Shown here in pieces: positions 14,848 through 33,882 of a stretch of DNA of 64,000 nucleotides. Under the pieces are notes generated by a model. That model did not search any database. It was not told the DNA's origin and worked only from the letters and a program-made list of their open reading frames with translations. The position numbers and the translations under genes were made by a program. Each line of letters opens with the position of its first letter. Positions within the stretch are counted from its first letter, which is position 1. Location of the stretch: NCBI GenBank assembly GCA_002440965.1, contig DJWJ01000019.1, forward strand, positions 8,119 to 72,118. The letters are read 5' to 3'. This DNA comes from Candidatus Omnitrophica bacterium UBA6233. Its GTDB lineage: Bacteria > Omnitrophota > Gorgyraeia > Gygaellales > Profunditerraquicolaceae.

Positions 14848-14849
14848 TT

Positions 14850-16319: not shown

Positions 16320-17023
16320 ACAAATATAAATTCCCTGGCTAGGTTAACCGGACAAACGCACTTAATCAGAGAACGTTTAAAGAATTTCCCTATCGATTTA
16401 AGTTTAAAAGTCCCTTCCTGGAACAACTCCGGCCAAAGGTTAGAACCGTAAACCCGCTCGGCCAGGAGGCCATTAGCTCCTAATAAGCTAACCCACTCTT
16501 TCCGGGTGGCTGTCTTTTCCAGAATCTGAAAATCATCCACCGGTTTATTTCCTTCTCTTCTAATATGCAGAAAGAAATCCAAGCTAAAAGAATTAGGCAG
16601 AATAATGCAAAATTTAGCATTTTCTTTAGCAACTCTGACTATCTCCCTTATCCCTAAACCCGGATCCAGATAATGCTCAAGACTACCTAAACAAGTTACA
16701 TAGTCAAATTGCTTATCCTTAAACGGTATCTTTTGCCCATCAGCTGTCATTAATCGAGCTTGCGGACAATTTTTTCTAGCTACAGAAATTGCGACATCCG
16801 AAATATCCAGGCCAAATTCTTCAATTTGCTTACTCCGTTTCAAAACTTCCCGCAAGAATATTCCTTCTCCGCAGGAGACGTCCAATATTTTCGCGCCAGA
16901 TTTAGGATTAAGTAAACGCGCCAGCCATCTGTAGTAGGCAGAATTAGTCCTAATCCCAGGACCGGAATAAATCCGATTATAGTCTGAAATAATCTCTTTG
17001 CTGCTTAATTGATTTTCATTCAT
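16304..17023 (-). CDS. Class I SAM-dependent methyltransferase
   Basis: 239 aa; SAM motif I ILDVSCGEGIFLREV. Confidence 0.65.
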   Translation of the reverse strand: MNENQLSSKEIISDYNRIYSGPGIRTNSAYYRWLARLLNPKSGAKILDVSCGEGIFLREVLKRSKQIEEFGLDISDVAISVARKNCPQARLMTADGQKIPFKDKQFDYVTCLGSLEHYLDPGLGIREIVRVAKENAKFCIILPNSFSLDFFLHIRREGNKPVDDFQILEKTATRKEWVSLLGANGLLAERVYGSNLWPELFQEGTFKLKSIGKFFKRSLIKCVCPVNLAREFIFVCKKA

Positions 17024-19101
17024 TGGATTAGCACCTTATATATGCGCGCCAAGGAATTAACATACACCAACTGAAAATCCTGCGGGCGCGCCAGCGCCCA
17101 TTCGTCTTCAATCGGAAATTTAGCAGGATCCTCCGATTCCCTATTCTCAGGAAATGGAAGAGCAATAAATAGATATCCAATTCGCTCTTTTTTTAAGTTA
17201 GTTCTCCAAGTTGCAAAGTCTTTCACCTTGCGGCATAAACCATCCGGATTATCATAAAGAGAGGTTTCCCTGGTATTCACCGAAACATATTTAACGTCAT
17301 TTTTAAGCTTAGATCCGAATAAAGGATAAAATTCCTGCCTGCCAGTATAAGTAACCCGGCTGCCGCTGCCAGTAACTTCATTAAGCTTCTGCCAAGCTCT
17401 GGCTATATCCAATTGCCAAGCCTCTTTCTTGCTAAAAGTAGAAGGATACCGGCTAAATTCATCCTTATCATATCTGCCATTGAGATAAACTAATCCTAAC
17501 GCTATAAATACCAATCCCGCAAAAACAGCCTTGCTAAACCCCTGGCTTTTATAAAACGCGGCCAGCTGTTTCCTATAAACAAACAAAGCTATAAATAACG
17601 CCAAAGAAAGTAATATGGAAAAAACCAATTCGTAGCGGTGGGCCAATTCAAAGGCCGAAAGTAAAACTGATATAAACGCGACAACGCCAAAATATTTTTC
17701 TCCTTTAGGTAACCGGGTTATAAAAATAACCGAACACACTAGCCCTACGCTAACAAAGGGAAAAATATAGCGAGTCACATAAGCATTCACCAATACTACA
17801 TACAAGGCAAACATTATCAAAGGAGTAATAGAAATAAGCAGATATTCCGCAAAATTCCGCTCTCTCTTCTTAAAAAATGTAAGCATAAACATTGGCAACA
17901 AAATACCCGGCAAGATTATGAGTATAAACTGTATCCCCAAACCTTCAGCAAAAATAATTTTCCATAGATCCAATCTATTTCCTGCGTAATATAGTTTATT
18001 ACATACAACCGTATCTATTAAACCTTTAAATATAGTTTTTCCGAACAGGGTTACCTGATTAGGGAATAAAGGGTTACCGGTAAGAATAAAGTTTTTAATA
18101 AACATATACCCGCCAAATAAAACTACCGTCACGGCAATAGATAATAATAAAATTAGGAGCTTCTTTAACCCGGGCTTTTGCGCCTTAATTGCCGTAAATA
18201 AACCATAGAAAATCAACGGAAATAAACCCGCTAACCAGACAATATTCAAAATCTTCGTTCCCACGAATATCCCTACTGTAATCCCAAATAAAAACGCATT
18301 CTTGATACTAAGCTTATCTTTAAGTATTAAGAAAGTAAAAATCACTAAGAGTAGTAAAACCGAGCAGATTACGTCTATCTGAGAGCCAGACTTAAGCTGC
18401 TTAAAAATATTAGGTATAAGCACCCAGAGAAAACCGCTTAATAAAGCAAACTTCTTGTTAACTGAATATTTTCTCAGAATCGTATAGATAGCTATTATCC
18501 CGATAATATAAAACGGAGCTTCTCCTAAATCAGCCAAAAAAGCGTTCCTTAAAGGCAACATTAGCCAAACAAAGAATAATTCAGCGTTAATCGGGAAATA
18601 AGAGATACCGCTTGTTTCCAAACGAGGATATATCGGATTGAATACCCCGCTAAAGACTACAAAAGGGTTATCCAGATTTCCGTTTCTTATCCAAACTGCC
18701 GGGAAAGAAAGGTGATACTGCAGGCTATCCGGACACCATGGCGGGTTGACTAAATTGATGAATGATTTTGCCAAGAAAAAGGCAACAAAAACCGCAAAAG
18801 CAAACAGGATTAAATTGCTTTTGATAAAAGGCTCGATATCGGGTTTGGCAGGAAATAAAACAGGCTTCTTACGGTAAACTAAGATTGTTACCGCAAGAAG
18901 CAGCATATTCGCCAAGAAAACATTCGGAAAATAAAACAGGCCCAGGCTGCCTAAAATCAGTTCCGTTAGAACTATCTGGGCAAAGAATAATATAAAAACC
19001 GTAAGCGCGCAATCACACAATCCTTTAACCCCAAAAAAATTCTTGGCAAGAATTACGGAGTTTAAAATTACCGCTAAATTAATTAAAATCAACATTAACA
19101 T
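17020..19101 (-). CDS. Large polytopic membrane protein with C-terminal soluble domain (GT-C/oligosaccharyltransferase-like architecture)
   Basis: 693 aa; ~13 hydrophobic helices in first 510 aa, then ~180-aa hydrophilic C-terminus. Confidence 0.35.
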   Translation of the reverse strand: MLMLILINLAVILNSVILAKNFFGVKGLCDCALTVFILFFAQIVLTELILGSLGLFYFPNVFLANMLLLAVTILVYRKKPVLFPAKPDIEPFIKSNLILFAFAVFVAFFLAKSFINLVNPPWCPDSLQYHLSFPAVWIRNGNLDNPFVVFSGVFNPIYPRLETSGISYFPINAELFFVWLMLPLRNAFLADLGEAPFYIIGIIAIYTILRKYSVNKKFALLSGFLWVLIPNIFKQLKSGSQIDVICSVLLLLVIFTFLILKDKLSIKNAFLFGITVGIFVGTKILNIVWLAGLFPLIFYGLFTAIKAQKPGLKKLLILLLSIAVTVVLFGGYMFIKNFILTGNPLFPNQVTLFGKTIFKGLIDTVVCNKLYYAGNRLDLWKIIFAEGLGIQFILIILPGILLPMFMLTFFKKRERNFAEYLLISITPLIMFALYVVLVNAYVTRYIFPFVSVGLVCSVIFITRLPKGEKYFGVVAFISVLLSAFELAHRYELVFSILLSLALFIALFVYRKQLAAFYKSQGFSKAVFAGLVFIALGLVYLNGRYDKDEFSRYPSTFSKKEAWQLDIARAWQKLNEVTGSGSRVTYTGRQEFYPLFGSKLKNDVKYVSVNTRETSLYDNPDGLCRKVKDFATWRTNLKKERIGYLFIALPFPENRESEDPAKFPIEDEWALARPQDFQLVYVNSLARIYKVLIQ

Positions 19102-19805
19102 TTATTCACCTTACCAAAAAACTTCACCCTCAAAATAGCCAAAATCGCAGGAATAATATCGAACATTCTGATGGTTTTACCCTCTTTATGCGTACGGGGC
19201 TTATAGCTTATCGGAACCTCTCCGATTTTATAATCCCTTTTACAAAGCATACTAACCAATTCAAACGCGAGAGCCTGTCCATTAGACTGACAATCTATTT
19301 TCTTTAAAACCTCCGTTTTAATTAAATTAGTCCCTATAATATCTGTAAAATTCTTCCGGTATAACAAATTTATCATAGAAGTCGCTATAATCGTGCCCAG
19401 CCAAAAAGGCCTTTCTCTAATCAATGCCCGGATAGAAACCCCCTTTCTATCCGCTAAACGCGAACCAAAAACAACATCCAAACCTTCATTCTCTATTTTT
19501 TCCATCATTTTCAGGACATCTTCCATCTTGTATTCCAAATCCGCTCCAGGCCCATAAACATAATCACCTTGCGCCAGGCACATTCCTTCCCAACCAGAAT
19601 ATCCGGCGCCCATATTCTTAGAATGGAGAATTATTTTAAGCTCCTTATCGCCTTTTAAACTCTCCAATATTTCTTTTGTGCCATCAGTCGAGCAATTATC
19701 TATAACGATAATCTCTTTATCAATCTTTAAAGCCTTAGCTTCTTCTATAGCTTTTAAAATCGTTGGTTTTTCATTAAAACAACTTATAACAATTGTTAGT
19801 CTCAT
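19095..19805 (-). CDS. Family 2 glycosyltransferase (polyprenol-phosphate sugar synthase-like)
   Basis: 236 aa; LTIVISCFNE...VIDNCSTDGT...GADLE motifs. Confidence 0.65.
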   Translation of the reverse strand: MRLTIVISCFNEKPTILKAIEEAKALKIDKEIIVIDNCSTDGTKEILESLKGDKELKIILHSKNMGAGYSGWEGMCLAQGDYVYGPGADLEYKMEDVLKMMEKIENEGLDVVFGSRLADRKGVSIRALIRERPFWLGTIIATSMINLLYRKNFTDIIGTNLIKTEVLKKIDCQSNGQALAFELVSMLCKRDYKIGEVPISYKPRTHKEGKTIRMFDIIPAILAILRVKFFGKVNKC

Positions 19806-21115
19806 ATTGCCTTTCTGAAGAAATTATGTAAAACCATCTCCACATAAGATAACATTGACTTGGTGAGGCCCGGATAAACTCCGAGCCAAAAAAGATTGTT
19901 CATCACCAAATCAGTATTTTTTAAATTCCCCGCCACCCTATACTTTATATTCTTATAAGCTGGCTGCTTAAGCAAGTTCCCTCCGAATAACATCCGCGTA
20001 GCTATTTTTTTATTCTCTAAATAACTGACAATATCCGTTCGATTAAATGGAGCTGTATCTCTTACTAAAACCGGAAAACCGAACCAGCTCGGATCAGAAT
20101 GTTCTTCTGCCTGCGGCAATATAAAATAATCGCCGTATTTTTCAAAAACTTTATAAAGGAATCTAAAATTATTTTTCCTCGCTTCGATAAACCGGGGCAA
20201 TTTTTCTAACTGCGCGCACCCGATAGCCGCTTGCATATCGGTAACCCTTAAATTATATCCTATATGCGAATACACATATTTATGGTCATAACCATATGGC
20301 AAATCACCAAATTTCTGAGAGAATCTCTTTCCGCAAGCGTTATCGCGCCCGGTTTCACAATGACAATCCCGTCCCCAATCACGAAAAGACATAACGATTT
20401 TCTTAAGAAGCGGATTCTCCGTTAAAACCGCTCCTCCCTCTCCCATAGTCATATGATGACTCGGGAAAAAACTACAAGTAGAGATATCGCCGAATGTTCC
20501 GGCATATTTTCCTCTATATCTAGACCCGAGGCTATCGCAATTGTCCTCGATCCACCACAATTTATGCTTTTTAACTATTTTTTTAACCTTGTCTATGTTT
20601 ATCGGATTACCCAGGGTATGCGCGGTAAAAATTGCTTTCGTCTTTCTAGTAATAGCTTTTTCTATTTTTTCTGCCTGAATATTATAAGTCCCTGACTCCA
20701 CATCGATAAATACCGGAACAAGATTGTTCTGGATTACCGGGTTAAGCGTAGTCGGAAAACCGCAGGCAGTAGTAATCACCTCGTCTCCCGGCCTTAAGCG
20801 CCTTTCTTTTAATAATGGCGAGGTTAACGCGCTTAAAGCCAAAAGGTTTGCCGAAGAGCCGGAGTTTACCAGCAGACAATACTTTATACCCAGGAAATCC
20901 GCCAGCCTGGATTCAAATTCTTTAGCGTATCTTCCGGCGGTAATCCAGAAATCCAAAGAAGCATCCACGAGATTAACCATCTCGCTTGCGTCAAAAACCC
21001 TTCCCGCGTAATTAATATAGCTTGCTGAAGGAACGAAGCTCCTTATAAATGATTGCTTATGGTATTTTCTAACCTTGGCAAAAATCTCTTTTCTCAATCT
21101 CTTCTCTCTATCCAT
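19802..21115 (-). CDS. ddhC: CDP-6-deoxy-D-xylo-4-hexulose 3-dehydrase (E1, DdhC/RfbH/AscC), PMP-dependent with [2Fe-2S] motif
   Basis: 437 aa DegT-fold; PLP-Lys replaced by His (SFFPSHHMTMGEGG); cysteines arranged C-X57-C-X1-C-X7-C (NCDSLG...DCHCETGRDNAC), the E1 iron-sulfur signature. Confidence 0.75.
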   Translation of the reverse strand: MDREKRLRKEIFAKVRKYHKQSFIRSFVPSASYINYAGRVFDASEMVNLVDASLDFWITAGRYAKEFESRLADFLGIKYCLLVNSGSSANLLALSALTSPLLKERRLRPGDEVITTACGFPTTLNPVIQNNLVPVFIDVESGTYNIQAEKIEKAITRKTKAIFTAHTLGNPINIDKVKKIVKKHKLWWIEDNCDSLGSRYRGKYAGTFGDISTCSFFPSHHMTMGEGGAVLTENPLLKKIVMSFRDWGRDCHCETGRDNACGKRFSQKFGDLPYGYDHKYVYSHIGYNLRVTDMQAAIGCAQLEKLPRFIEARKNNFRFLYKVFEKYGDYFILPQAEEHSDPSWFGFPVLVRDTAPFNRTDIVSYLENKKIATRMLFGGNLLKQPAYKNIKYRVAGNLKNTDLVMNNLFWLGVYPGLTKSMLSYVEMVLHNFFRKAI

Positions 21116-21116
21116 A

Positions 21117-22283
21117 TTATTGATAAATACTTATTATTTCATTCTTTAATTTAAGCACCCGCCTGATCTGCCGGATTATCTCCTCCTGATAACCGTATGT
21201 TGATACCAATATAGGCAAACTTTCACCGCGTATTTCTGCCGGCGGTTTTATACTTATACCGCGCAGCTTCTTTCCGGCGTACCTCAGGTTTGAATCGACG
21301 AAAAATGATATTTTTGATAAGTCAAGGGCTGAACCAATCAATCTCTGGGTATGAGTGCCTGCGCCCCAAACAATAATTTTATTCCTGCCGGACAGTTTAC
21401 TATGAATGGCTCTTCTAACCTTTAGATCAAGTTTTGAACAGCCGGCAATATAGCTTTTTATCTTTCTTGCGCTGATATTATCCTTAACGGTTTTCATATC
21501 GCTCTTGCCTGTTTTTTTCAAAAGGACAAAAAGCACAGGATCAATGTTCTTTCTCGCCTTATTTTCATTCCTCTTTACCGCTGCTATCGAAAATGAGAAT
21601 CTCGAAGCCAAATTCCCGATTGAATACCTGGAAAAATAATTGATATGTTCGATACTAAACTGCTGGAATGGCGGGTATATGTATTTGTCAAACCGCTCTG
21701 TATCAGGCACCTCTAAAAATACTAATCCGTTTTCATCTAATAAACTATGTATTTTTCGCATCGGCGCCTTGAGATCTACCAAATGCTCAAACACAGAGGA
21801 TAAAATCACTAACCCGAATTTTTCCTTGCCCTTATAGCTTGTTATGTTGTTAGAGGTAACATTAATATCGTATATCTTTTTAGCCGCTTTTGCGCATGAA
21901 GGCGACGGATCAATACCCTCTAAATCGCGATACCCGCGTGTTTTAAGCACCGATAGCAGGGCGCCTGTCGAACAACCGATATCCAATATTTTTGCGCATG
22001 GATGCTTTATATGAGGAATCAAAAAATTCACTATTTTCCTAAAATGGGCCATGTTCCCGGCTGGCACAGCGCCAGAATTATTATTGAATTCATATTTAGA
22101 CATCCGCGCATAGTAATTATCGAATTCCGCCTGCGGAGGGATATTGTCAGCGTAAATGAAACCGCATTTTTTGCATACGGCGACATTATATTTTTCCATC
22201 AGCGAGATTTCATTATTACGGAAATTCTGCACATAAAGCTGCCTTTTTTGAGCACAGCCGCAAACCGGACAATCTCTGGACAC
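21117..22283 (-). CDS. SAM-dependent methyltransferase with N-terminal zinc-ribbon (NDP-hexose C-methyltransferase-like, TylC3 family architecture)
   Basis: 388 aa; CPVCG...(28 aa)...CKKCG zinc ribbon, then SAM motif ILDIGCSTGALLSVL, then ~150-aa C-terminal domain. Confidence 0.5.
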   Translation of the reverse strand: MSRDCPVCGCAQKRQLYVQNFRNNEISLMEKYNVAVCKKCGFIYADNIPPQAEFDNYYARMSKYEFNNNSGAVPAGNMAHFRKIVNFLIPHIKHPCAKILDIGCSTGALLSVLKTRGYRDLEGIDPSPSCAKAAKKIYDINVTSNNITSYKGKEKFGLVILSSVFEHLVDLKAPMRKIHSLLDENGLVFLEVPDTERFDKYIYPPFQQFSIEHINYFSRYSIGNLASRFSFSIAAVKRNENKARKNIDPVLFVLLKKTGKSDMKTVKDNISARKIKSYIAGCSKLDLKVRRAIHSKLSGRNKIIVWGAGTHTQRLIGSALDLSKISFFVDSNLRYAGKKLRGISIKPPAEIRGESLPILVSTYGYQEEIIRQIRRVLKLKNEIISIYQ

Positions 22284-22285
22284 CT

Positions 22286-24079
22286 CTAATTGCCCTCCTG
22301 TATAAATATATTTTCTTTAAATTCTTTTCTATCCAGAAAAGGGGACATATCCTCAAGCCGGCTTGAAACTATCTTGCCGTTATCCAGCTTACTGGAGGAA
22401 AGCCGGGGAGCGAATTTATAATTCGTTTCAAGCATAACTTCGCACAAAATCGCGCCTTCCGAATTTATTATCTTAAGGATCTTTTCAGGCATGCCCTTAT
22501 GGGTTGTAATTTTTGCGGCCTTGATCCCAAAAGCGCCGGCCACTTTCACAAAAGAAGGGAAACTGACCCCTGATTTTTTATCGCATCCCACATACGGCGG
22601 GCCAAAAAAATTCTCCTGCGTCTGCCTTATCGAACTGTATCCGCCATTATTCAACACGAATATCTTAATCGGCAGTTTATTATATTTTATGGTCTGTAAT
22701 TCCTGTATATTCATCTGGATACTGCCATCTCCGGCTATGCAGATTATATCCCTATTCCCATTGCCTATGCATGCCCCTATGGAAGCCGGCAAATCATACC
22801 CCATTGCAGCACAACCTGAGTTCCATATTACCCGCTGTTTGTCTTTAACTATACCTGCCTGGAATAGAACTACGGATGGAGTCGCGTTTGCGGTAACAAT
22901 CGTCTCTCCGGGCCTGGCTAATTCGGTAAGAACCCGCATAAAATAATAAGGATTGACCGAAGCAGACCTGCTGTATTCCGGAAGCACTACCGGATACTTA
23001 TCCCTCCTCTTGCTGCACCACAACAACCAATCCTTGCAGTCAAAGCCGGAAATTTTATATTGCAAAAATTTGCTTAAGAAAAGCCCGGCATCGCAGTTAA
23101 TGGCAATATCCGGTTTAATTGTCGGTTTTTTTAGCTCTGCCGAATCTATATCCACAACAACTTTCTTTGCAGCATGCGCGAACGACTGCCAATTATAGCT
23201 AACCTGCCTTATATTATTCCTTGTCCCCAGGCATAAAACGAGGTCGGAATTCTGCAAAGCGAAATTTCCCGCACGGCTGCCTAATGTTCCTATCCTGCCG
23301 ATAAAATACGGATTATCGGAAGGCACTAAATCAAAACCGTTAAAAGTAGATAAAACGGGAACCTTTAATTTGCGGATTAGAGCCAGTAAAAATTCCTTCG
23401 CCCCTGCTATCCGTATTCCATTACCGGCAACTATGACCGGCCTTTTTGATTTCTCAAGCAATTCGAGAAAATGCCGTATTTTACCGTCAATATTATCTGG
23501 TTCCCGCCTGAGGATAATACCGGATCCGATTAGATTATTTTCTTCTATAACTGCTCCCTGAATATCCAAGGGAATATCCAACCACACCGGCCCCGGCCTT
23601 CCGGTAGCCGCTAGGTTAATTGCCTTATCCAATAATTTCCTTATATCTTCGGCTTTCCTGACCGTAGCGGCGAATTTTGTCAATGGCCTGACAACACTTA
23701 CTATATCCACTTCCTGGTCGCCTAACTGTCTTAATCTAATATTTGGACAGGAAGCAATCGTGGTTTCGGATTTTACCTGTCCGGATATATATAACACCGG
23801 AACTGAATCCGTCCATTGCCCCATAACGCCGGTTAACGTATTCAATCCCCCCGGGCCCGTAGTTACATTGACAACGGCGAGTTTGCCGCTTACCCTGGCA
23901 TAGCCTTCCGCGGCTATAGCGCAAGCCTGCTCATGATGCATAAAAATACACTTGAGAAGTTTATTCTTCCCGAATGAATTATTTAAATGCATTGCGCCGC
24001 CGCCGGTAACCATAAAAACGCGCCTAACTCCGTATTTCGTCAGGTACCTGGCGATATAATCGGAAACCTTGATTTTCAT
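22286..24079 (-). CDS. Thiamine-diphosphate-dependent enzyme of the acetolactate-synthase family (YerE-like C-C bond forming enzyme candidate)
   Basis: 597 aa, three-domain ALS architecture: N-terminal Pyr domain (VFMVTGGGAMHLNNSF), central domain, C-terminal PP domain with GDGSIQMNIQELQT. Confidence 0.75.
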   Translation of the reverse strand: MKIKVSDYIARYLTKYGVRRVFMVTGGGAMHLNNSFGKNKLLKCIFMHHEQACAIAAEGYARVSGKLAVVNVTTGPGGLNTLTGVMGQWTDSVPVLYISGQVKSETTIASCPNIRLRQLGDQEVDIVSVVRPLTKFAATVRKAEDIRKLLDKAINLAATGRPGPVWLDIPLDIQGAVIEENNLIGSGIILRREPDNIDGKIRHFLELLEKSKRPVIVAGNGIRIAGAKEFLLALIRKLKVPVLSTFNGFDLVPSDNPYFIGRIGTLGSRAGNFALQNSDLVLCLGTRNNIRQVSYNWQSFAHAAKKVVVDIDSAELKKPTIKPDIAINCDAGLFLSKFLQYKISGFDCKDWLLWCSKRRDKYPVVLPEYSRSASVNPYYFMRVLTELARPGETIVTANATPSVVLFQAGIVKDKQRVIWNSGCAAMGYDLPASIGACIGNGNRDIICIAGDGSIQMNIQELQTIKYNKLPIKIFVLNNGGYSSIRQTQENFFGPPYVGCDKKSGVSFPSFVKVAGAFGIKAAKITTHKGMPEKILKIINSEGAILCEVMLETNYKFAPRLSSSKLDNGKIVSSRLEDMSPFLDRKEFKENIFIQEGN

Positions 24080-24087
24080 TCTTCCTG

Positions 24088-25179
24088 CTATAATCCTCGG
24101 CTGTATATTGTATTCTTCAAACCTTCATTGTTGGCATAGGGGCTGTCGATCATATCAATCTTTATCGGTTCATCCTTCTTGCAGGGCTTTAACAAAACTT
24201 CTCCGCTCATCAATTCCCTGCAGGAAATCTGGCCTTTTTGCAAAGGTATAGCCAGATACACATCCTGCTCCATATCTTCATGATGGAAAATATGCCCCTT
24301 TGGTAAATCCCTTTTTGCATAGACTCCCCTGACAAGAGCGTCAAGATATGTAATTTCTTTCTCGGAAGGGAACCTTTTTGAAGCTCCGGAGGCGCCGCAC
24401 ATCTCTTTCGCTTTTTTAAAAGCCTTAAACCAGGCATCTATCTGATGAGGAAGAGAACAATAGGCAGAAACGGGGTGTTTACCGTCTTCTATATCTATGT
24501 GCCTTTCAAAAGTCCTTGCCCCTTTTGCGTAAGCTATCATTATGGAAGAAGACCAATCATGGTATTCATGGGTAGATAATCCGATGGTATGGTTAGGATA
24601 CCTATTTTTCAAGAAATCTATCTGATTTAGCTCCAGCTCGTGGTCTTCGGAAGGATATAACGCAACACAGTGATTTAAAGCAAGCGGGATATTCCTGTTT
24701 TCAAAAAAAACAACCAGATCATCAAGGTCCTTAAGAGACGAACCCCCGGTAGAAACAATAACCGGTTTCTTGGTCCGGGCAATCCTCTCTATCAATACCC
24801 AATCATTTAAATCGGAACTGGCAATTTTCAATATTTGAATCCCTATTTCCTCACAAAAACCTACAGAATGCTCGTCAAACGGCGTTGCCGAGGAGATCGC
24901 CCCTCCTTTTCTAATAGCATCCACCATAACCGTAAAATCCTCCGGAACCAACCGGGTATCTAGCGTTTTTTTAATATACCGCAGGTCTGCCCTATCGCGA
25001 AAATCCTTATGTATAAAATTGCTTACGTCCCTTATCTGAAGCTTGATGGAAGCTCTTACATTGTTAAACCTGATTATCCTGGAGAATTCACTTATAATCC
25101 TCAAGCCTCTTTCCAGATTGCCGTAATGGTTATTGGCTAATTCTAAAACAAACAAATCTTCAAATATATCCTTATTCAT
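24088..25179 (-). CDS. NeuB-family sugar-PEP aldolase (sialic/legionaminic/pseudaminic acid synthase paralog) with C-terminal SAF domain
   Basis: 363 aa; N-terminal LELANNHYGNLERG (NeuB TIM-barrel signature) and C-terminal SAF-like region. Confidence 0.65.
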   Translation of the reverse strand: MNKDIFEDLFVLELANNHYGNLERGLRIISEFSRIIRFNNVRASIKLQIRDVSNFIHKDFRDRADLRYIKKTLDTRLVPEDFTVMVDAIRKGGAISSATPFDEHSVGFCEEIGIQILKIASSDLNDWVLIERIARTKKPVIVSTGGSSLKDLDDLVVFFENRNIPLALNHCVALYPSEDHELELNQIDFLKNRYPNHTIGLSTHEYHDWSSSIMIAYAKGARTFERHIDIEDGKHPVSAYCSLPHQIDAWFKAFKKAKEMCGASGASKRFPSEKEITYLDALVRGVYAKRDLPKGHIFHHEDMEQDVYLAIPLQKGQISCRELMSGEVLLKPCKKDEPIKIDMIDSPYANNEGLKNTIYSRGL

Positions 25180-25206
25180 AACAATACTACCTCCTCTTAA
25201 GATAGA

Positions 25207-26085
25207 TTACTTGTCGGACAACAATGATTCTCTATTAATTGCCGCTTTGTTTTCCGAATACCACGAATAAAGTCCGCCTATCGATTTCTCCATCGGGCTG
25301 AAATTGAAATCAAGTATCTGGCTGCGGAGCCTTGCATTATCCCCGCTATACTCATAGCACATTCCTTCCTTAGCAACTTTAATCGGAAGCTTTTTGCCGG
25401 ATATTTCGATTACTTTTTCGGCTAACTTATATAATTCCACCGAGGCATCCGGCGTAATATTATAGCAGTTATACTTTGCCTCATTCTCTATGAAATGCGG
25501 AATAATCCTCACAAAATCCTCGATGTAAACATAATCGAATTTTCTATTCTGTTTTGCGGTAATCGGCAGATCGAAAATGGCCTTGCAAATTGCGTTAGAG
25601 ATGAACCTTATGGCATAATCTTCATATTTACCGAAAATACCGAAAATACGCAGTTCTACGATATTTTCGAGCTTCTCTATCTGTTTAGCTATAATATACT
25701 TGGAAAATCCATGCTCATCCTCGGGGACATACGTATCAAAAAAATCTTCGCTTACCTTTACCAACGGCTTGGACACATCGTATACCGCACCCGAACTTAA
25801 AAATACCATCTTGCCGAAATACCCTCTATTCCGGATTATGTTAAAGAACATACGTAAATTATTATAAAGCTGCCTGGACGGATCCTTGGCATTACGGTTC
25901 CCGGGGCGCACGGCGCTGTGGATTATCACATCCGGCTTATGAACCTGAAGATAACTTCTTACCGCATTTCCATCCAAAAGCTCCAGTTCTTTATGCCCTG
26001 GGGCAAATAATTCATACTTTTGCTTCAGGTATTCTGCCAGATTCCTGCCGATAAAGCCGCTGCCGCCGGTGAGAAATATTTTCAT
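25207..26085 (-). CDS. NAD(P)-dependent epimerase/dehydratase-family protein (candidate NDP-4-keto-sugar reductase)
   Basis: 292 aa; Rossmann motif IFLTGGSGFIGRNL. Confidence 0.6.
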   Translation of the reverse strand: MKIFLTGGSGFIGRNLAEYLKQKYELFAPGHKELELLDGNAVRSYLQVHKPDVIIHSAVRPGNRNAKDPSRQLYNNLRMFFNIIRNRGYFGKMVFLSSGAVYDVSKPLVKVSEDFFDTYVPEDEHGFSKYIIAKQIEKLENIVELRIFGIFGKYEDYAIRFISNAICKAIFDLPITAKQNRKFDYVYIEDFVRIIPHFIENEAKYNCYNITPDASVELYKLAEKVIEISGKKLPIKVAKEGMCYEYSGDNARLRSQILDFNFSPMEKSIGGLYSWYSENKAAINRESLLSDK

Positions 26086-26822
26086 AATTTATAAATCAGG
26101 CCGTCCCTGGCGGCTATGGTGTTCTTAAAAATCTTCCGGGCGGATTCTTTAGCTAATCTTATATCGCTTTCTTTCAAATAATCGCCGGCATCGAAATGCA
26201 CCAAAACCAATTTTTTTACTTTCGCGGCCCTAGCCGCCCTAGCCGCCTGTTCAGGATTTAAATGCGGCCACCCCCTATCGATAACTCCAGGAAGCAAGGA
26301 TGACTCTGCTATTAATAAATCTGCGTTTTTTGCCAAGGCCAGCATTCCTTTACATTCTCCGGTATCGGTGCAAAAAACCAATGTTTTACCGCCGGCGGAT
26401 AAACGGTATCCGTAACAAACAGTCGTATGCAAAAGTTTTTCATATTCGATATCAAAAGGGAACTTCAGGCCGCGGCTGATATCTTTAACCAGGATTTTTG
26501 ACTTAAGCTTACGGATAGGTTTAGAATACGGAGTATTAATGACAAGATTAAACATTTTCCGCGTTCCCTTTGGCCCAAAAACTTTGATGCCCTGCGGAAA
26601 AACGAATTTATTCAAAGCGTGCAACCCGATAATATGGTCCAAATGAAAATGGCTCAAAAAAAGATAAACGGGACGCTTGTCTTTTATGTAATGGTCAATC
26701 TTGGAAAAACCCGTCCCGGCGTCAAAAATAACATACTCCCTGCCGGTATCCACCAAGACGCAAAGGGTGTTACCGAGCCGGCCGTCATACCAACCCATAG
26801 TCCCCAAGAATATAACCCGCAT
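26082..26822 (-). CDS. MBL-fold metallo-hydrolase
   Basis: 246 aa; HFHLDH metal-binding motif. Confidence 0.6.
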   Translation of the reverse strand: MRVIFLGTMGWYDGRLGNTLCVLVDTGREYVIFDAGTGFSKIDHYIKDKRPVYLFLSHFHLDHIIGLHALNKFVFPQGIKVFGPKGTRKMFNLVINTPYSKPIRKLKSKILVKDISRGLKFPFDIEYEKLLHTTVCYGYRLSAGGKTLVFCTDTGECKGMLALAKNADLLIAESSLLPGVIDRGWPHLNPEQAARAARAAKVKKLVLVHFDAGDYLKESDIRLAKESARKIFKNTIAARDGLIYKL

Positions 26823-26836
26823 AAAATTAGACAGGA

Positions 26837-27769
26837 TTAATCAAAATTAATCCGTTCCCTCTCGATAACTAAAGGCCTTTTCCTGACTTGAGTATAAATT
26901 GCCCCGATATATTCCCCCAATACCCCGATAAAAACCAGCTGGACGGAGAAGAAGAAAAACACACCGACAACCAGAGGGGCGACTCCTAACTGGAAATTAT
27001 TCCAGAAAATTAATTTATATATTAAATATATCACCCCGATTATAAAGAATATGAAGGAAAATATCATCCCGAAAAAAATCGCCATCCTCAAAGGCACCTT
27101 GGAATTATTCACGATGCCTAACATCGCCATATCAAACAAGGTATAGAAATTATTTTTAGTAATTCCCGCGGCCCTATTTGGCTGGACATACTCTACAAGC
27201 GCAACATCGGAACTTATCTCAAGTATTAATCCCCTCAAGTATGGATACGGATCCTTGATGCCCCTTAAAGCTTCGACAACCTTCTTGTCAAAAAGGCCAA
27301 ACCCGGAATAATTCTCTATCTGTTTCTCTTCTGAAAGGGAATTTAATAACTTATAGAACAGCTTCCTTACGGTAAACATAAGAGAATTTTCCTTGCTCCC
27401 GGTTTTTACCCCCACAACAACTTCATGGCCGGCTTCCCACTGCCTTATGAAATCGTTTATCAATCCCGGAGGATCTTGCAAGTCGGAAGCGATATTGATA
27501 ACCGCGTCTCCTTTGGCTTGCAATAAACCGTAATAAGGCGAACGGATATGGCCAAAATTCCGGGCGTTCACAATTATTTTTAAATTTTTGTCCTTAGCGG
27601 CAATACTTTTAAGAATCTCAACGGTTTTATCCGTCGAGGCATTATCGATAAAGATATGTTCGTAAGTGTAGCCGCCCAAGGCGCCGAAGATTTCTTTTAC
27701 CTGCCGGTATAGCTCATAAACATTCTCTTCTTCGTTATAGCAGCCGGTTACGACGCTTATTTTCTTCAT
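26837..27769 (-). CDS. Polyprenol-phosphate glycosyltransferase (GT2, DPM1/ArnC-like) with C-terminal TM helices
   Basis: 310 aa; ISVVTGCYNEE...IDNASTDKT...ASDLQD then two hydrophobic helices. Confidence 0.65.
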   Translation of the reverse strand: MKKISVVTGCYNEEENVYELYRQVKEIFGALGGYTYEHIFIDNASTDKTVEILKSIAAKDKNLKIIVNARNFGHIRSPYYGLLQAKGDAVINIASDLQDPPGLINDFIRQWEAGHEVVVGVKTGSKENSLMFTVRKLFYKLLNSLSEEKQIENYSGFGLFDKKVVEALRGIKDPYPYLRGLILEISSDVALVEYVQPNRAAGITKNNFYTLFDMAMLGIVNNSKVPLRMAIFFGMIFSFIFFIIGVIYLIYKLIFWNNFQLGVAPLVVGVFFFFSVQLVFIGVLGEYIGAIYTQVRKRPLVIERERINFD

Positions 27770-27779
27770 CTTAATAAAA

Positions 27780-27833
27780 GGGGACGGTTCTATTTTTCTT
27801 AAATACCTAAACCGGAAAAATAGAACCGTCCCC
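27780..27833 (-). repeat. 19-bp-stem hairpin of the GGGACGGTTCT family, 10 nt upstream of start codon of 26837..27769; T-run follows on the minus strand
   Basis: GGGGACGGTTCTATTTTTC (27780-27798) pairs perfectly with GAAAAATAGAACCGTCCCC (27815-27833); 16-nt loop. Confidence 0.6.
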
Positions 27834-28808
27834 TTTAGCTCCCCTTTTAACCCTATAGCTTTCTATTGTTTGGATTAAACCCGCTAAAACAGAGAACTTA
27901 GGCTTCCAACCGAGTTTAGCCCTGGCTTTGCGGGAAGACAAATACTGATGTTTTATTTCATACTTCGCCTGATTCAATATTTTATAATCAACTGGTTTGC
28001 CAACGGATTTAGCAATCATTTTAACCAGTTCGATGACCGTAAGCGGATTTTCACAGCTAAAATTAAAAGCTTCACCGGCAAGGTTAAGCTTCCGCATTTT
28101 TTCCGCTAAAAGGATATAGCCGTTCACTATGTCCTCCACGAACACATAATCGCGGGTAAACAGACCGTCGCTGCGGATTAAAAGTTTTTTTCCGGCAAGC
28201 GCGCATTTAACCGCATCAGGAACAAGACGGCTGGAATTAAAATCTCCGGGGCCGTAGATGTTACCGCAACGAGTAACACATACAGGCAGGCCATAGGTAT
28301 GGGCGTAGGTATTGGCGATTAAATCCGCGCAGCTTTTGGAAACATCATACGGATGGCTGCCTTGTAACGGAGCCTTTTCCGTATAGGGAAGTTTTTCATG
28401 GATTCCATAGGCCTTATCGCTAGAGGCGAGAATAACTGCTTCGATGTTTTTTGCGTTCCGGCAGGCCTCCAAAACATTCCAGGTTCCCCGGATATTCGCA
28501 GAAAAAGCTGACAAGGGGCGGTTATGGCATTTCCCTACAATGGCCTCTGCCGCTAAATGGAATACCAGATTAATCTTATTTTCCCTTATTATTTTTTCTA
28601 ACAGTTTATAGTTCGCCACGCTGCCTTTAACAACGGATATCCTCTTATAGTCATCCGGAGCAAGAAGCGTGGCTTTTCTTTCAGTCTTAATATCTAATCC
28701 GATTATCCTGGCTCCGGAAGGAATCAACGCCCTGGTAAGATTAGAACCCAAGAACCCTTCAAATCCGGTAATCAGCACATTTTTTCCCGCCCAAAATTTC
28801 TTATTCAT
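27807..28808 (-). CDS. ddhB: CDP-glucose 4,6-dehydratase
   Basis: 333 aa; N-terminus KKFWAGKNVLITGFEGFLGSNL matches RfbG/DdhB signature (FW.GK.V..TGhTGFkGsWL). Confidence 0.7.
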   Translation of the reverse strand: MNKKFWAGKNVLITGFEGFLGSNLTRALIPSGARIIGLDIKTERKATLLAPDDYKRISVVKGSVANYKLLEKIIRENKINLVFHLAAEAIVGKCHNRPLSAFSANIRGTWNVLEACRNAKNIEAVILASSDKAYGIHEKLPYTEKAPLQGSHPYDVSKSCADLIANTYAHTYGLPVCVTRCGNIYGPGDFNSSRLVPDAVKCALAGKKLLIRSDGLFTRDYVFVEDIVNGYILLAEKMRKLNLAGEAFNFSCENPLTVIELVKMIAKSVGKPVDYKILNQAKYEIKHQYLSSRKARAKLGWKPKFSVLAGLIQTIESYRVKRGAKGDGSIFPV

Positions 28809-28817
28809 TGACCTATC

Positions 28818-29594
28818 TTAATCCTTCCATTTTTTCCAGGGAGCCTTGCCGCTATCCCAAAGCGCTTCCAACTCGCACCTATCCCGTAACGTATCCATAC
28901 ATTTCCAAAAACCATTGTGTTTAAACCCAACCAACTGATTATCCAAGGCCATACTTTTTAGAGAATCGAATTCCCATATAGAGCGGTCTCCGCTGATATA
29001 GTCGAAAACTTCCGGCTCAAGCACAAAGAATCCGCCGTTAATCCACGAGCCATCCCCTTTTGGTTTTTCGAGGAAAGAATTGACTGTTCCCGAATCTTTC
29101 ATTCTTAGGGCGCCAAACCTGCCGGCAAGCTGAACCGCGGTAACTGTCGCGCTTTTACCGGAACGCTTATGAAATTTAAGCAGCTGCCGGATATCCACGT
29201 CGCTAACTCCATCGCCATAAGTCATCATAAATGTTTTATTGCCTACGTATTTCTGAACGCGCTTCAGGCGGCCGCCGGTCATTGTGTCAAGGCCGGTATC
29301 GACAAGAGTAATCTTCCACGGTTCGGAAGACGTCGCGCGGACTTCCACAGCGTTTTTCTTCAAATCAATGGTAATATCGCTCATATGCATAAAATAATGG
29401 GAGAAATACTCCTTGATTATGTAGCCCTTATAGCCTAAACAGATAATAAAATCGTTGAATCCGAAATGAGAATACAGCTTCATAATATGCCAGATGATAG
29501 GCTTGCCGCCGATTTCGACCATCGGCTTGGGAATATTGGTCGTCTCTTCGCTGATTCTCGTTCCTCTGCCGCCAGCTAATATGACTACTTTCAT
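28818..29594 (-). CDS. ddhA: Glucose-1-phosphate cytidylyltransferase
   Basis: MKVVILAGGRGTRISEET...PKPMVEIGGKPIIWHIM; start at Met14 of track ORF (ATG 29592-29594) preceded by AAGGAGAG RBS. Confidence 0.8.
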   Translation of the reverse strand: MKVVILAGGRGTRISEETTNIPKPMVEIGGKPIIWHIMKLYSHFGFNDFIICLGYKGYIIKEYFSHYFMHMSDITIDLKKNAVEVRATSSEPWKITLVDTGLDTMTGGRLKRVQKYVGNKTFMMTYGDGVSDVDIRQLLKFHKRSGKSATVTAVQLAGRFGALRMKDSGTVNSFLEKPKGDGSWINGGFFVLEPEVFDYISGDRSIWEFDSLKSMALDNQLVGFKHNGFWKCMDTLRDRCELEALWDSGKAPWKKWKD

Positions 29595-29604
29595 ACGCTC
29601 TCCT

Positions 29605-30816
29605 TTATGGCTTAAAAACCGGTTCTTGCTCAAGCTTAGAGCTTAAGGCAACCGTCAAGCCTAATACCGTCCAAAAAAGAAAACTTAACTGAAAAGAATA
29701 CAGGTGAACCTCAAAAAAACTATGGACTAAAAACCCCAATAACCCCGCAGTCAGGCCCAATAAAGCAAAACTACCCAGAGATCCGGGCGCGCTTAAACTT
29801 ATCCTGATACTCCTGTAGAAAATATAGCCCATAAACAGAAGAAAACACAATAAGGAAAAAACTCCCGATTCCGCCCAAATTTGAAGGAAACAATTATGCG
29901 CGTAAAAAATACCCGGGCTATTGGTATAGGAAGCGCAATAATCCATAAAAGTGCCGATACCCTTACCCAAAAAAGGGTGCTCCCTAATCATCCGGCCGGC
30001 GCCGCGGAAAAGAGTGAACCTGTAACTATCCCGCCTGTTCTGGAAGAAAAATAAAAGCAATCCCAATAACGGCACAAAAAAAAGATAGCAAACCAAAAAC
30101 AGGGGCCAAAATACTTTTTTTAGCCGGAGACGGTTAGTGACTAAAACTATAAGAATTAAACCGGAAACAACGCCTAACCACCCGCCCCGGGAAAGAGCCC
30201 AAAGAGAAGACAGGATAAGCATAATGGTAATCAGAAAAAGGCACAATCTTACAGCCGCTTTTTTCCATTTCCACAGGCTAAGGCTCAAGGCAAGGGGAAT
30301 AACGCAGGTCAAATAAGCTGCCAAGGCATTTGGATTTTTAAAAGGGCCTATGCTGGGCAACGAATGGCCCCATGAACCCCTTCCTCTTAAGAATTCAAAC
30401 CCAAAAAACTTTTGCGTAAAAACCGTAAGCCCTACCAGCGCCGCGCTAAACAAGAGGACATAAACCGCCTTAACAATGCGCTTGGTATCCTTAAACGTAT
30501 CGATAATTGCCCAAAGAAGCAAAGGAAACCTGCCCCATTTCAAGATAAGCACCTTTAAGCTTTTAGCCAATAATGGCCCGCTGTTAAACAGGGACAAACC
30601 CATAAAGACAAAAAATAACAGCAGGAATAAAAACAAAACTTTATTGGCCTTGATACTGGAAAAATCGGGGAATAAAATTTTTTTAAGCAAAAAGAAGGCA
30701 AGGACAAAACCGGCAAAAGAACCGATCATCGCTATAGAGATGGGGATAAAGAATATCAACCCGTAAACAGAATATTCCACCGCCGCGTCCAAAAATCTTA
30801 ATATTTTTAATTTCAT
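29605..30816 (-). CDS. O-antigen ligase/Wzy_C-family membrane protein (second paralog)
   Basis: 403 aa polytopic; WALSRGGWLGVVSGL loop motif. Confidence 0.5.
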   Translation of the reverse strand: MKLKILRFLDAAVEYSVYGLIFFIPISIAMIGSFAGFVLAFFLLKKILFPDFSSIKANKVLFLFLLLFFVFMGLSLFNSGPLLAKSLKVLILKWGRFPLLLWAIIDTFKDTKRIVKAVYVLLFSAALVGLTVFTQKFFGFEFLRGRGSWGHSLPSIGPFKNPNALAAYLTCVIPLALSLSLWKWKKAAVRLCLFLITIMLILSSLWALSRGGWLGVVSGLILIVLVTNRLRLKKVFWPLFLVCYLFFVPLLGLLLFFFQNRRDSYRFTLFRGAGRMIREHPFLGKGIGTFMDYCASYTNSPGIFYAHNCFLQIWAESGVFSLLCFLLFMGYIFYRSIRISLSAPGSLGSFALLGLTAGLLGFLVHSFFEVHLYSFQLSFLFWTVLGLTVALSSKLEQEPVFKP

Positions 30817-32639
30817 AGAGGTATTATTTCGCGCAATTTCTTAACCGTTGCCGCCCCGTCCATTACGCCTGCCGTTCTTTCCAGCTCCTTGATTTTGCGC
30901 CTTAAGACGCGCGGGTCAAAAGAATCCGACTGGGCAATATAAATCTTATCCGCCTTGGTAGCTTTGTCTTTTTCGCTATTTAACAAGGTCTCCTCAAAAA
31001 GCTTTTCTCCCGGGCGCAAGCCGATAAACTTTATCTTTATGTCTTCTTCGGGCTTTAAGCCATAAAGAGCAATCAACTCTTTGGCTAAATCCAATATCTT
31101 AATCTGCTCGCCCATATCCAAAATAAATATTTCTCCCGCTTTAGCCATAGCTCCGGCCTGCAAAACAAGCTGGCTGGCTTCATTAATGCTCATAAAATAC
31201 CTTTTGACTTCGGGATGAGTCAGGGTTACCGGGCCGCCTTCTTCGATTTGTTTCTTGAATAACGGAACAACGCTTCCGTCAGAACCCAAAACATTCCCAA
31301 ACCTAACCGCCATAAATTTAGTTTTGCTCATCCTAGCCTTAGACTGCAAAACCATCTCCGCTACCCTTTTAGTAATACCCATAACACTCTTGGGGTTTAC
31401 CGCCTTATCCGTAGAAATAAAGATAAACCTTTCCACTTTGTAATGATCCGAGGCATAAATAAGGTTCCGGCTTCCGATAATATTATTTTTTACCGCTGCC
31501 GCGGGATTCTCCTCCATAAGAGGAACATGCTTATGGGCTGCCGCGTGGAATACAACTTGCGGCTTGTAAAGCGAAAACACCTTCTTTAACAAACCAATGT
31601 CTCTGATATCCCCAATGATGGTCTTAAACTTAATCTTCGGGTATTTTGTCAGAAATTCAATACCCAAATAATAGACATTGTTCTCATTGTGGTCGAATAA
31701 CAAGATTTCCCTAGGGCTAAAATTCATTATCTGCCTGCAAAGAGACGAACCGATTGAGCCGCCAGCGCCGGTAACTAAAACCACTTTATCAAATAAATAA
31801 TCCTTAATCTCTTTTTCATCGATATTTACCGTTTCTCTGCCCAAAAGGTCTTCCGGTTTAATATCCCGGGGCTTAACTTCCAAATCGCCATTAAGTATCT
31901 TTTGCAAACCCGGGACTATCCGGATTTTCACAGAAGGTATCTGGCAACGCGAAATGATATTCCTGATTACTTCGCCTTTGGCAGAAGGAATGGCTATGAT
32001 GATTTCGTCAATTCCGTATTTTTCGACAATCGAAGCGATATCGTTACAGGCTCCCAAAATACCCACGCCTTGAATACGCAAATTCTTTTTGTTCCTATCA
32101 TCGTCAATAAAACCGATAATCTCCATATTTGTGTTGGGATTAATCCTGGCCTCTCTTAACACCATTACACCGGCTTCTCCCGCCCCGATAATGATAGCCC
32201 TCTTCCGTTTGCTTTCCAGAACAGGACGGAACTTTTCCCGGAATAACCGCGTAACGAAACGGATCCCGGCGACAAAACAAAAACTTATGACACCATCCAA
32301 GATAAAGACCGAGCGCGGGAAACCATTAAAATAAGGGATGAAAACAACCACGGCGGTAAAACAGAATATGGCTAGAATATGCGCTTTGATTATTCTCCAG
32401 ATATCATCTATACTGGCGTATCTCCATAAACCGGAATAAAGGCCAAAATACCCGAAAATAATCATTTTGATAGCGGCAAAAACCGGGAGGGTTTTGATAA
32501 TTACCTGCCAAGAGCTGTTGTCAATTTTAAAATCCAACCGCAGGTAAAAAGCGAGGATATAGGCGCAAATCACCAAGGCCAAATGAATGGTTATGATAAT
32601 CAGGCGCCGGGATTTAAAGATTAATTCCTTTAGGTTCAT
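30813..32639 (-). CDS. Membrane-anchored NDP-sugar 4,6-dehydratase (CapD/WbpM/PglF family)
   Basis: 608 aa; 4 N-terminal TM helices, two Rossmann domains (AIIIGAGEAG; VLVTGAGGSIGSSL), YxxxK region. Confidence 0.8.
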   Translation of the reverse strand: MNLKELIFKSRRLIIITIHLALVICAYILAFYLRLDFKIDNSSWQVIIKTLPVFAAIKMIIFGYFGLYSGLWRYASIDDIWRIIKAHILAIFCFTAVVVFIPYFNGFPRSVFILDGVISFCFVAGIRFVTRLFREKFRPVLESKRKRAIIIGAGEAGVMVLREARINPNTNMEIIGFIDDDRNKKNLRIQGVGILGACNDIASIVEKYGIDEIIIAIPSAKGEVIRNIISRCQIPSVKIRIVPGLQKILNGDLEVKPRDIKPEDLLGRETVNIDEKEIKDYLFDKVVLVTGAGGSIGSSLCRQIMNFSPREILLFDHNENNVYYLGIEFLTKYPKIKFKTIIGDIRDIGLLKKVFSLYKPQVVFHAAAHKHVPLMEENPAAAVKNNIIGSRNLIYASDHYKVERFIFISTDKAVNPKSVMGITKRVAEMVLQSKARMSKTKFMAVRFGNVLGSDGSVVPLFKKQIEEGGPVTLTHPEVKRYFMSINEASQLVLQAGAMAKAGEIFILDMGEQIKILDLAKELIALYGLKPEEDIKIKFIGLRPGEKLFEETLLNSEKDKATKADKIYIAQSDSFDPRVLRRKIKELERTAGVMDGAATVKKLREIIPL

Positions 32640-33801: not shown

Positions 33802-33827
33802 ATTTCTTACCTCCTTTACCCAATAAA

Positions 33828-33855: not shown

Positions 33856-33882
33856 ACACAAAGTTTTTACATTGCGATTTTT

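Follow-up and report, generated by a model that had tools for sequence, protein, structure and literature searches.

The window analysed here is the whole 64,000-nucleotide stretch of contig DJWJ01000019.1 (forward-strand positions 8,119 to 72,118) from Candidatus Omnitrophica bacterium UBA6233, of the phylum Omnitrophota. It carries a 64-kb surface-glycan locus whose genes lie on a single strand, and the present work concerns one interval of it, 19802-29633, which we propose to be an operon for a branched dideoxy sugar. The same DNA is also present on metagenome contigs. Nine minus-strand open reading frames (ORFs) are packed in this interval; neighbours overlap by up to 4 nt or are at most 37 nt apart (Table 1). 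The initial annotation, made from the sequence alone, had placed here CDP-3,6-dideoxyhexose genes together with a thiamine diphosphate (ThDP) enzyme, a methyltransferase, an epimerase/reductase-family protein and a NeuB paralog, and all of them were recovered at their coordinates and on the minus strand. Two further genes in the interval, coding for a family 2 glycosyltransferase (GT2) and a metallo-β-lactamase (MBL)-fold hydrolase, were absent from that account. The genes had also been described as co-transcribed, which agrees with their tight packing and is deduced from packing only, as a promoter and terminator scan over 14-33.8 kb returned counts at chance level that do not inform the operon boundaries.

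Table 1. Genes of the proposed branched-sugar operon and of its downstream neighbours (window coordinates).
Gene product	Position	Strand	Basis of assignment
DdhA/RfbF glucose-1-phosphate cytidylyltransferase	28818..29633	-	TIGR02623
NDP-glucose 4,6-dehydratase, extended short-chain dehydrogenase/reductase (SDR)	27807..28808	-	NCBIfam CDP_4_6_dhtase, below cutoff
GT2 polyprenyl-phosphate glycosyltransferase (ArnC/GtrB/PgfS-like), C-terminal transmembrane (TM) helices	26837..27769	-	Pfam Glycos_transf_2
MBL-fold hydrolase (RNase Z/PhnP-like)	26082..26822	-	Pfam Lactamase_B_2
Extended SDR, 292 aa	25207..26085	-	Pfam Epimerase/RmlD_sub_bind
NeuB-family paralog, 363 aa	24088..25179	-	Pfam NeuB, 118.7 bits
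YerE-like three-domain ThDP enzyme, 597 aa	22286..24079	-	Pfam TPP_enzyme_N/M/C
Three-domain S-adenosylmethionine (SAM) methyltransferase, 388 aa	21117..22283	-	Pfam Methyltransf_23; fold match
E1 RfbH/DdhC/AscC 3-dehydrase	19802..21115	-	NF011936
Short second GT2 (AglJ/PpgS/dolichyl-P-hexose transferase-like)	19095..19805	-	NCBIfam, below cutoff
Polytopic membrane protein, 693 aa, candidate GT-C-type transferase	17020..19101	-	Hydrophobic sequence; weak LIC_10190 match

The cytidylyltransferase DdhA scores 419.6 bits against its equivalog model (cutoff 300). Its ORF extends to 29633 with a TTG start while the JGI gene call is 258 aa long, and the true start is likely Met14, at about 29594. 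The adjacent gene, initially called ddhB, does encode an SDR of the 4,6-dehydratase family with SSDKAYG and YxxxK motifs, although not one of the canonical CDP type: its best NCBIfam model, TIGR02622, is matched at 204.7 bits (cutoff 278.45), the dTDP type at 187.9 bits, and among structures in the PDB the dTDP-glucose dehydratase 6bi4 (156 bits) comes ahead of the CDP-glucose dehydratases 1rkx and 1wvg (130 bits). We infer a CDP-glucose dehydratase function because the gene adjoins ddhA, and the enzyme is probably of a divergent type distinct from canonical DdhB. E1, the CDP-6-deoxy-L-threo-D-glycero-4-hexulose 3-dehydrase, matches RfbH (NF011936) at 717.5 bits, well above the cutoff of 423, and both cofactor signatures reported for it are present, namely the exact [2Fe-2S] motif (C193-X57-C251-X1-C253-X7-C261) and a histidine (His220, in the context SFFPSHH) in place of the lysine that binds pyridoxal phosphate.

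The three domains claimed for the ThDP enzyme were all detected, and the protein displays the canonical GDG...NN motif (GDGSIQMN...NNGGY) as well as an HHEQ sequence containing the catalytic glutamate. Its highest NCBIfam matches are acetolactate synthase (ALS) models, all below cutoff (TIGR00118: 352 bits against a cutoff of 538), and neither ilvN nor ilvC lies near the gene within the window; the firm ALS grouping that would have left a standard dideoxyhexose pathway was thus not seen. Among solved structures, JanthE from Janthinobacterium sp. HH01 (8rph; also 8rpi and 8rpj) ranks first with 382.8 bits, in a full-length alignment at 36% identity that includes a C-terminal tail common to both proteins, while every acetohydroxyacid synthase (AHAS) remains at or below 254 bits. 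JanthE is a YerE-like enzyme that joins α-keto acids to ketones (PMC12188165, PMC12247030). Its locus reads DdhA-DdhB-E1-JanthE-SDR-DmpF-DmpG aldolase, so that, as in the window, dideoxysugar genes accompany the carboligase, with DdhA-DdhB-E1 directly upstream and the SDR directly downstream of JanthE. Unlike the window protein, JanthE has CDG in its ThDP motif, its locus carries the DmpF/DmpG aldolase-dehydrogenase pair where the window has the NeuB paralog, and the window protein falls into a separate, tighter subfamily whose members are 46-69% identical. On sequence grounds the enzyme is best filed as YerE-like, with the caveat that PpYerE (5ahk) itself reaches 251 bits, no better than plant AHAS.

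This family is widespread. Searches returned 8000 scored database matches, the best 120 of which are 57-69% identical to the window protein, and at least 598 loci were found in GTDB species genomes, in Omnitrophota, Bacteroidota, Melainabacteria, Elusimicrobia, Campylobacter concisus, Legionella and Clostridium, among others. For comparison we used the best 80 of these at least 598 loci (L009-L088), which come from many phyla and have ThDP homologues of 46-69% identity; neighbouring genes were located by tblastn and all ORFs of the 80 loci were clustered. Homologues of DdhA and of E1 each occur in 47 of the loci and a 4,6-dehydratase in 54, and nearly all of the DdhA, E1, SDR and GT2 homologues share the strand of the ThDP gene. 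An E3 reductase, reported missing from the window, was found there neither in the Pfam lists nor in a motif scan, and the same scan for plant-type ferredoxin cysteines and FAD and NAD motifs detected no E3/AscD-like reductase in the 80 loci either. The JanthE locus likewise has no E3 gene; the lack of a local E3 is typical for clusters of this type. Since JanthE is the best solved relative, its locus has the same layout, and DdhA and E1 accompany the ThDP family across phyla, the original proposal that CDP-3,6-dideoxyhexose genes, a YerE-like carboligase and a YerF-like reductase together make a branched dideoxy sugar gains support.

Among the neighbours in the 80 loci that have no counterpart in the window, the commonest, 271 aa long, belongs to the HpcH/HpaI aldolase/citrate-lyase family, the family given for MMAR_2331 in caryophyllose synthesis (PMC9306805). 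In the published scheme for longer branches, an aldolase first makes a 4-hydroxy-2-oxo acid, which a YerE-like enzyme then uses, and the route is completed by a reductase and sometimes also a SAM methyltransferase; in vitro support comes from ErwE, which rejects pyruvate (PMC9306805). The HpcH-type aldolase and the NeuB paralog are distributed in a mutually exclusive manner, with the aldolase alone in 48 loci, the NeuB paralog alone in 15, both in a single one and neither in 15, many of which are truncated (Fisher p = 3.6e-7, relatedness of the loci ignored). In a rough neighbour-joining tree (BLOSUM distances, no support values), NeuB-type and HpcH-type loci are interspersed and the NeuB-type loci do not form one clade. 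We also assembled the reverse set, 80 metagenome contigs retrieved with the NeuB paralog alone as query. A ThDP gene is present on 52 of these contigs, and on 22 of the 25 having at least 2.5 kb on both sides; GT2 homologues occur on 46 and an HpcH aldolase on none of the 80. The NeuB paralog is 63-73% identical across phyla, at a median distance of 339 bp from the ThDP gene.

The NeuB paralog shares with NeuB, PseI, LegI and the uncharacterised Chromobacterium violaceum protein 3g8r a TIM-barrel NeuB domain, a C-terminal SAF-like region and the motifs for phosphoenolpyruvate (PEP) and metal (ANNH, KLQ, KIASS, STGG, HCV..YP, STHE and ERH). Unlike NeuB, PseI and LegI, it stays far below the equivalog cutoffs (PseI 117 bits against 340, NeuB 112 against 400), its genomic partner is the ThDP enzyme, and a CMP-sugar synthetase or NeuA-like gene was found in none of the NeuB-paralog loci. 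Its best PDB match is 3g8r with 217 bits, PseI and NeuB being near 75 bits. The canonical NeuB+SAF and NeuA proteins of the window belong to a separate cluster about 30 kb upstream of the operon. NeuB-type enzymes form, from PEP and an aldehyde, the same class of compound as the aldolase product. For this reason we read the paralog as a non-orthologous replacement, and most likely it takes the place of the aldolase of the published scheme. The view that it is an unexplained extra is therefore probably to be abandoned, given the mutual exclusion and the ThDP gene on 22 of 25 contigs. A substitute for the aldolase would in turn imply a branch longer than C2, and hence a sugar other than yersiniose. 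NeuB is not mentioned in the accessible literature on YerE-type pathways, and a literature search combining 3G8R, NeuB and thiamine returned nothing relevant.

Other genes recur around the NeuB paralog and the ThDP gene. A HAD_2-type phosphatase stands immediately upstream of the NeuB paralog in 22 of the 80 contigs of the reverse set (e.g., L092 5349, L102 5354, L113 5355), a hint that the substrate or the product may be phosphorylated, as happens on the routes through KDO-8-P and Neu5Ac-9-P; in the window, the MBL hydrolase is present and no such HAD phosphatase. A recurrent module beside the ThDP gene comprises a dehydroquinate (DHQ)-synthase-like protein, found in 26 loci, together with an adh_short SDR, found in 25, HAD phosphatases and sometimes a sugar-kinase-like protein. 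It is present in both HpcH-type and NeuB-type loci (e.g., L050 8877-9968, L063 13858-14529) and plausibly makes the aldehyde partner.

The methyltransferase had been described as TylC3-like. Its architecture consists of an N-terminal four-cysteine zinc ribbon, a class I methyltransferase domain and a C-terminal Rossmann-like domain. The suggested Pfam check was negative, since neither Methyltransf_13 nor Methyltransf_14 matched at E <=0.01 and only a generic class I domain (Methyltransf_23) was found; a few members of its family do have a precomputed PF08484 match. The predicted structure and three catalytic residues, in contrast, uphold the relationship. A sequence search of the PDB retrieved KijD1 (2e-7) and TcaB9 (7e-6), with matches spanning the second CxxC and the FxQxxxEHxxxFS motif. 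The AlphaFold2 model (pLDDT 91) gave as its best 18 Foldseek matches only KijD1, MtmC and TcaB9, over all three domains (E 1e-21 to 1e-18, TM-score about 0.67), the next matches covering the SAM domain only at E 1e-10 or worse. H167, E212 and H213 correspond to H183, E226 and H227 of KijD1 and are invariant in 41 homologues. The protein thus resembles TylC3, TcaB9, KijD1 and MtmC in its zinc ribbon, SAM domain and C-terminal nucleotide-sugar-binding domain, although its substrate would be CDP-linked instead of dTDP-linked. In a nine-sequence database, its C-terminal domain gave a single weak match to the N-terminal domain of the FkbM-type enzymes encoded nearby, which is a hint only. Homologues adjoin ThDP and NeuB-domain genes in Magasanikbacteria and Nitrospirae, and many NeuB-type loci have a methyltransferase of the window kind or of the FkbM type beside the NeuB-ThDP pair. 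Judging from the modelled fold, our best guess is that this enzyme C-methylates at the nucleotide-sugar level.

The epimerase/reductase-family protein noted initially is indeed an SDR, of 292 aa. Homologues occur in 39 of the 80 genome loci; they never lie on the strand opposite to the ThDP gene and are in most cases its immediate neighbours, a slot taken by other SDR families elsewhere. We propose that it is a YerF-like reductase of the side-chain ketone. The MBL hydrolase was found only in the window, in the closest Omnitrophota locus (L009) and on a few metagenome contigs, HAD phosphatases occurring in its place elsewhere. It is regarded as accessory, possibly a phosphatase or phosphodiesterase in the route to the branch precursor.

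The GT2 encoded within the operon scores 185 bits with PgfS and 120 bits with ArnC, both below the NCBIfam cutoffs, and has homologues of 47-60% identity in 37 of the 80 genome loci; genes for GtrA-like flippases occur in 11 related loci. Because this GT2 is kept in about half of the loci and GtrA-like genes accompany some of them, the finished sugar is suggested to go to undecaprenyl phosphate and to be attached outside the cytoplasm. Like the enzymes of ArnC/GtrB lipid-carrier systems, the protein is of the polyprenyl-phosphate sugar type with C-terminal TM helices; unlike in those systems, the proposed donor is a CDP-sugar instead of a UDP-sugar and the window has no confidently identified cognate GT-C transferase. 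Three weakly supported candidates for membrane transferases, of 693, 489 and 455 aa, the last one PMT_2-like, are encoded downstream. The 693-aa protein, which is strongly hydrophobic, has no Pfam hit on record and weakly matches the LIC_10190 membrane family, is a speculative GT-C-type candidate for moving the lipid-linked sugar onto the glycan. The short GT2, whose gene overlaps the E1 stop by 4 nt, is of uncertain membership in the pathway; it matches AglJ (68.8 bits) and PpgS (54.5 bits) below cutoff and has a 75% identical homologue in L009.

Taken together, we favour, with somewhat better than even confidence, an operon that makes a CDP-activated 4-C-branched 3,6-dideoxyhexose for a cell-surface glycan, with the NeuB-type enzyme feeding the branch. 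The structure of the product, the substrates and the order of steps are those that we infer as follows. DdhA, whose family assignment is firm, would form CDP-glucose, which the SDR dehydratase would probably convert to CDP-4-keto-6-deoxyglucose. E1, whose family and cofactor motifs are likewise evident, would then remove the 3-hydroxyl group with an electron donor encoded elsewhere, giving CDP-4-keto-3,6-dideoxyglucose. In parallel, the NeuB-like enzyme would combine PEP with an aldehyde or aldose into a 3-deoxy-2-keto acid, from which the MBL hydrolase could optionally remove a phosphate. The ThDP enzyme would decarboxylate this keto acid and transfer the resulting acyl-anion equivalent to the ketone at C-4, so that a tertiary alcohol bearing an acyl branch arises, and the 292-aa SDR would reduce the ketone of the branch. 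The TcaB9-fold methyltransferase would C-methylate a carbon beside a keto group before the sugar leaves its nucleotide; candidate positions are C-3 and C-5 in the 4-keto sugar and C-2' in the branch. Finally, the ArnC/GtrB-like GT2 would load the sugar on undecaprenyl phosphate, so that it can be flipped and attached outside the cytoplasm.

Other readings of the same genes deserve attention. The complete YerE/YerF-like pair in the window would also suit a yersiniose-type route, in which the ThDP enzyme uses pyruvate as YpYerE does, the branch is a C2 acetyl group reduced by the SDR to 1-hydroxyethyl, and the NeuB paralog is unrelated, making for example a separate ulosonic acid for the same glycan. 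JanthE and MygE do take pyruvate in vitro (PMC9306805, PMC12188165), and the separate nonulosonic-acid pathway upstream shows that NeuB-type chemistry takes place in this glycan locus. Yet that pathway has its own canonical NeuB+SAF, and the paralog is nearly always accompanied by the ThDP gene, excludes the HpcH aldolase beside it and comes with no CMP-activating enzyme, so that we hold this route to be unlikely. An even less probable interpretation makes the NeuB paralog and the ThDP enzyme a self-contained two-step unit apart from the CDP-sugar, turning for instance a ulosonic acid into a deoxy-aldose or an acyloin for some other use. The near-constant adjacency of the two genes in NeuB-type loci and the several contigs of the reverse set that have neither E1 nor DdhA in their available sequence speak for it; these contigs are mostly short, however, and where flanks exist, E1, the dehydratase and GT2 recur in the same operon. 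Moreover, the same ThDP family is tied to DdhA and E1 when it is found with HpcH aldolases, and all characterised relatives branch 4-keto sugars.

At the far end of the scale, the operon could specify an ordinary abequose-, paratose- or tyvelose-type pathway, with a stray acetolactate synthase as the ThDP protein and with a methyltransferase that decorates the glycan by O- or N-methylation. ALS models do give the top NCBIfam scores, the methyltransferase matches only generic Pfam domains and a role as CDP-4-keto reductase is conceivable in principle for the 292-aa SDR. We consider this reading very improbable, with the ALS matches lying far under cutoff, ilvN and ilvC not nearby, and every O- or N-methyltransferase trailing the C-methyltransferases by ten orders of magnitude in the fold comparison. 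An IlvB identity for the ThDP protein was rejected on the lead of about 130 bits that JanthE holds over all AHAS structures and on the synteny with DdhA and E1 kept across phyla.

Several observations nevertheless weigh against the branched-sugar pathway with a NeuB-type donor as we propose it. PpYerE scoring like an AHAS, 'YerE-like' does not designate a tight sequence clade. By sequence, the dehydratase remains below the cutoff of the CDP-type family, and E1 turnover must rely on a partner encoded elsewhere since the window has no E3. The Fisher test overstates independence because the loci are phylogenetically related. The window combines the NeuB paralog with the 292-aa SDR, while many NeuB-type loci use other SDR families. 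As for the methyltransferase, Tyr222 of the TcaB9 catalytic site is replaced by Ser210, its identity to its fold relatives is only 16-18%, and it is not a core component, with weak homologues in 8 of the 80 genome loci and FkbM-type enzymes in its place elsewhere.

Acyl-branched sugar systems with YerE-like enzymes are known for yersiniose A (YerE/YerF), erwiniose (ErwE/F/I/J), caryophyllose (MMAR_2331/2332), gastriose (MygE/F/I) and the 'ropiose' of R. palustris, and a unifying scheme was provided by Steitz et al. 2022 (PMC9306805). The window operon resembles these pathways in its genes for CDP-4-keto-3,6-dideoxyglucose, its three-domain ThDP carboligase, its adjacent NAD(P)H-dependent SDR, an enzyme able to build a functionalised α-keto acid and the surface-glycan setting; as in R. 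palustris, a SAM methyltransferase, optional in such pathways, is present. It differs in that the proposed keto-acid enzyme is PEP-dependent and of the NeuB family, where pyruvate aldolases, either DmpG/BphI-like or of the HpcH/HpaI-citrate-lyase kind, serve in the described examples, and in its TylC3/TcaB9-fold methyltransferase, the polyprenyl-phosphate GT2 within the operon and the uncultured Omnitrophota host.

More elaborate relatives were also encountered. A Magasanikbacteria contig (L089; Ga0210057_1000054, 1-19167) carries two ThDP enzymes. A DmpG-type aldolase and a genuine Methyltransf_13/14 C-methyltransferase go with one of them, a NeuB-Cupin_2 fusion with the other, and the contig further encodes a homologue of the window methyltransferase, an FkbM methyltransferase and three radical SAM/SPASM proteins. 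A Nitrospirae locus (L090) resembles it, and loci of this kind may make still more heavily modified branched sugars.

The remainder of the window is composite to an unusual degree for genes on one strand. A 608-aa PglF/PseB-like membrane-anchored UDP-GlcNAc 4,6-dehydratase (30813-32639), consistent with a bacillosamine-type reducing-end sugar, seems to be the operon head; a sigma-70-like site matching at 10 of 12 positions (32675-32648) lies directly upstream of its gene. Further upstream on the same strand, a complete nonulosonic-acid-type cluster (54944-64000) continues past the window end (L008 1-9944) and encodes the canonical NeuB+SAF, a NeuC-like epimerase, a PIG-L deacetylase, a formyltransferase, an SDR, a GFO/IDH oxidoreductase and a CMP-transferase. 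An amidotransferase trio of the WbuX/HisH/HisF kind is encoded there too, its WbuX member scoring 359 bits and thus above cutoff, and suggests that the nonulosonic acid bears a formyl or acetamidino group. The idea of a branch derived from this pathway, suggested by 'aurantose', was dropped as no support was retrieved. Between the two lies a non-glycan island (~33000-39300) with a TacA1-like antitoxin and a GNAT toxin-like acetyltransferase, a Bro-N protein, two AAA_14/DUF4143 ATPases and a ParE toxin, among which stands a lone Bac_transf initiating transferase; this island suggests that mobile elements joined or shuffled the two glycan sub-loci. The window also contains three Wzy_C/O-antigen-ligase-like paralogs (29605-30816, 12924-14162 and 42510-43733), three GT9 heptosyltransferase-like genes and a Glyphos_transf protein resembling CDP-glycerol/ribitol phosphotransferases (47834-49420).

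The pathway class itself is not new, as it is established and more than 200 such branched-sugar clusters have already been predicted in silico (PMC12247030). New here would be the NeuB-type donor synthase, a TcaB9-fold methyltransferase acting on a CDP-sugar, the lipid-carrier GT2 in the operon and the Omnitrophota host. Yersiniose, erwiniose and caryophyllose are rare and immunologically important sugars of bacterial surface glycans, and YerE-type enzymes are sought as biocatalysts for chiral tertiary alcohols. The branched-sugar cassette is very widespread in uncultured phyla: the ThDP enzyme was found at no fewer than 598 loci in genomes, and the NeuB paralog on at least 534 stretches of metagenome DNA. 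Together with the related loci, the window operon points to a third way of making the branch donor, one driven by PEP and therefore irreversible, and offers a testable function for an orphan NeuB subfamily of which a crystal structure is already available (3g8r). A broader proposal, for and against which we see matters as evenly balanced, is that this distinct and highly conserved 3g8r-type subfamily, 63-76% identical across phyla, does not consist of sialic-acid-type synthases and is the dedicated PEP-dependent supplier of a 3-deoxy-2-ulosonic acid for decarboxylation and grafting by a YerE-like enzyme onto CDP-4-keto-3,6-dideoxyglucose, and that the product is a new, probably C-methylated, higher-carbon branched sugar that takes a lipid-carrier route to the surface glycans of many uncultured bacteria. 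The predictions that follow are a new donor scope for YerE-like enzymes, possibly the first C-methyltransferase acting on a CDP-sugar, and hitherto unknown sugars in the envelopes of Omnitrophota.

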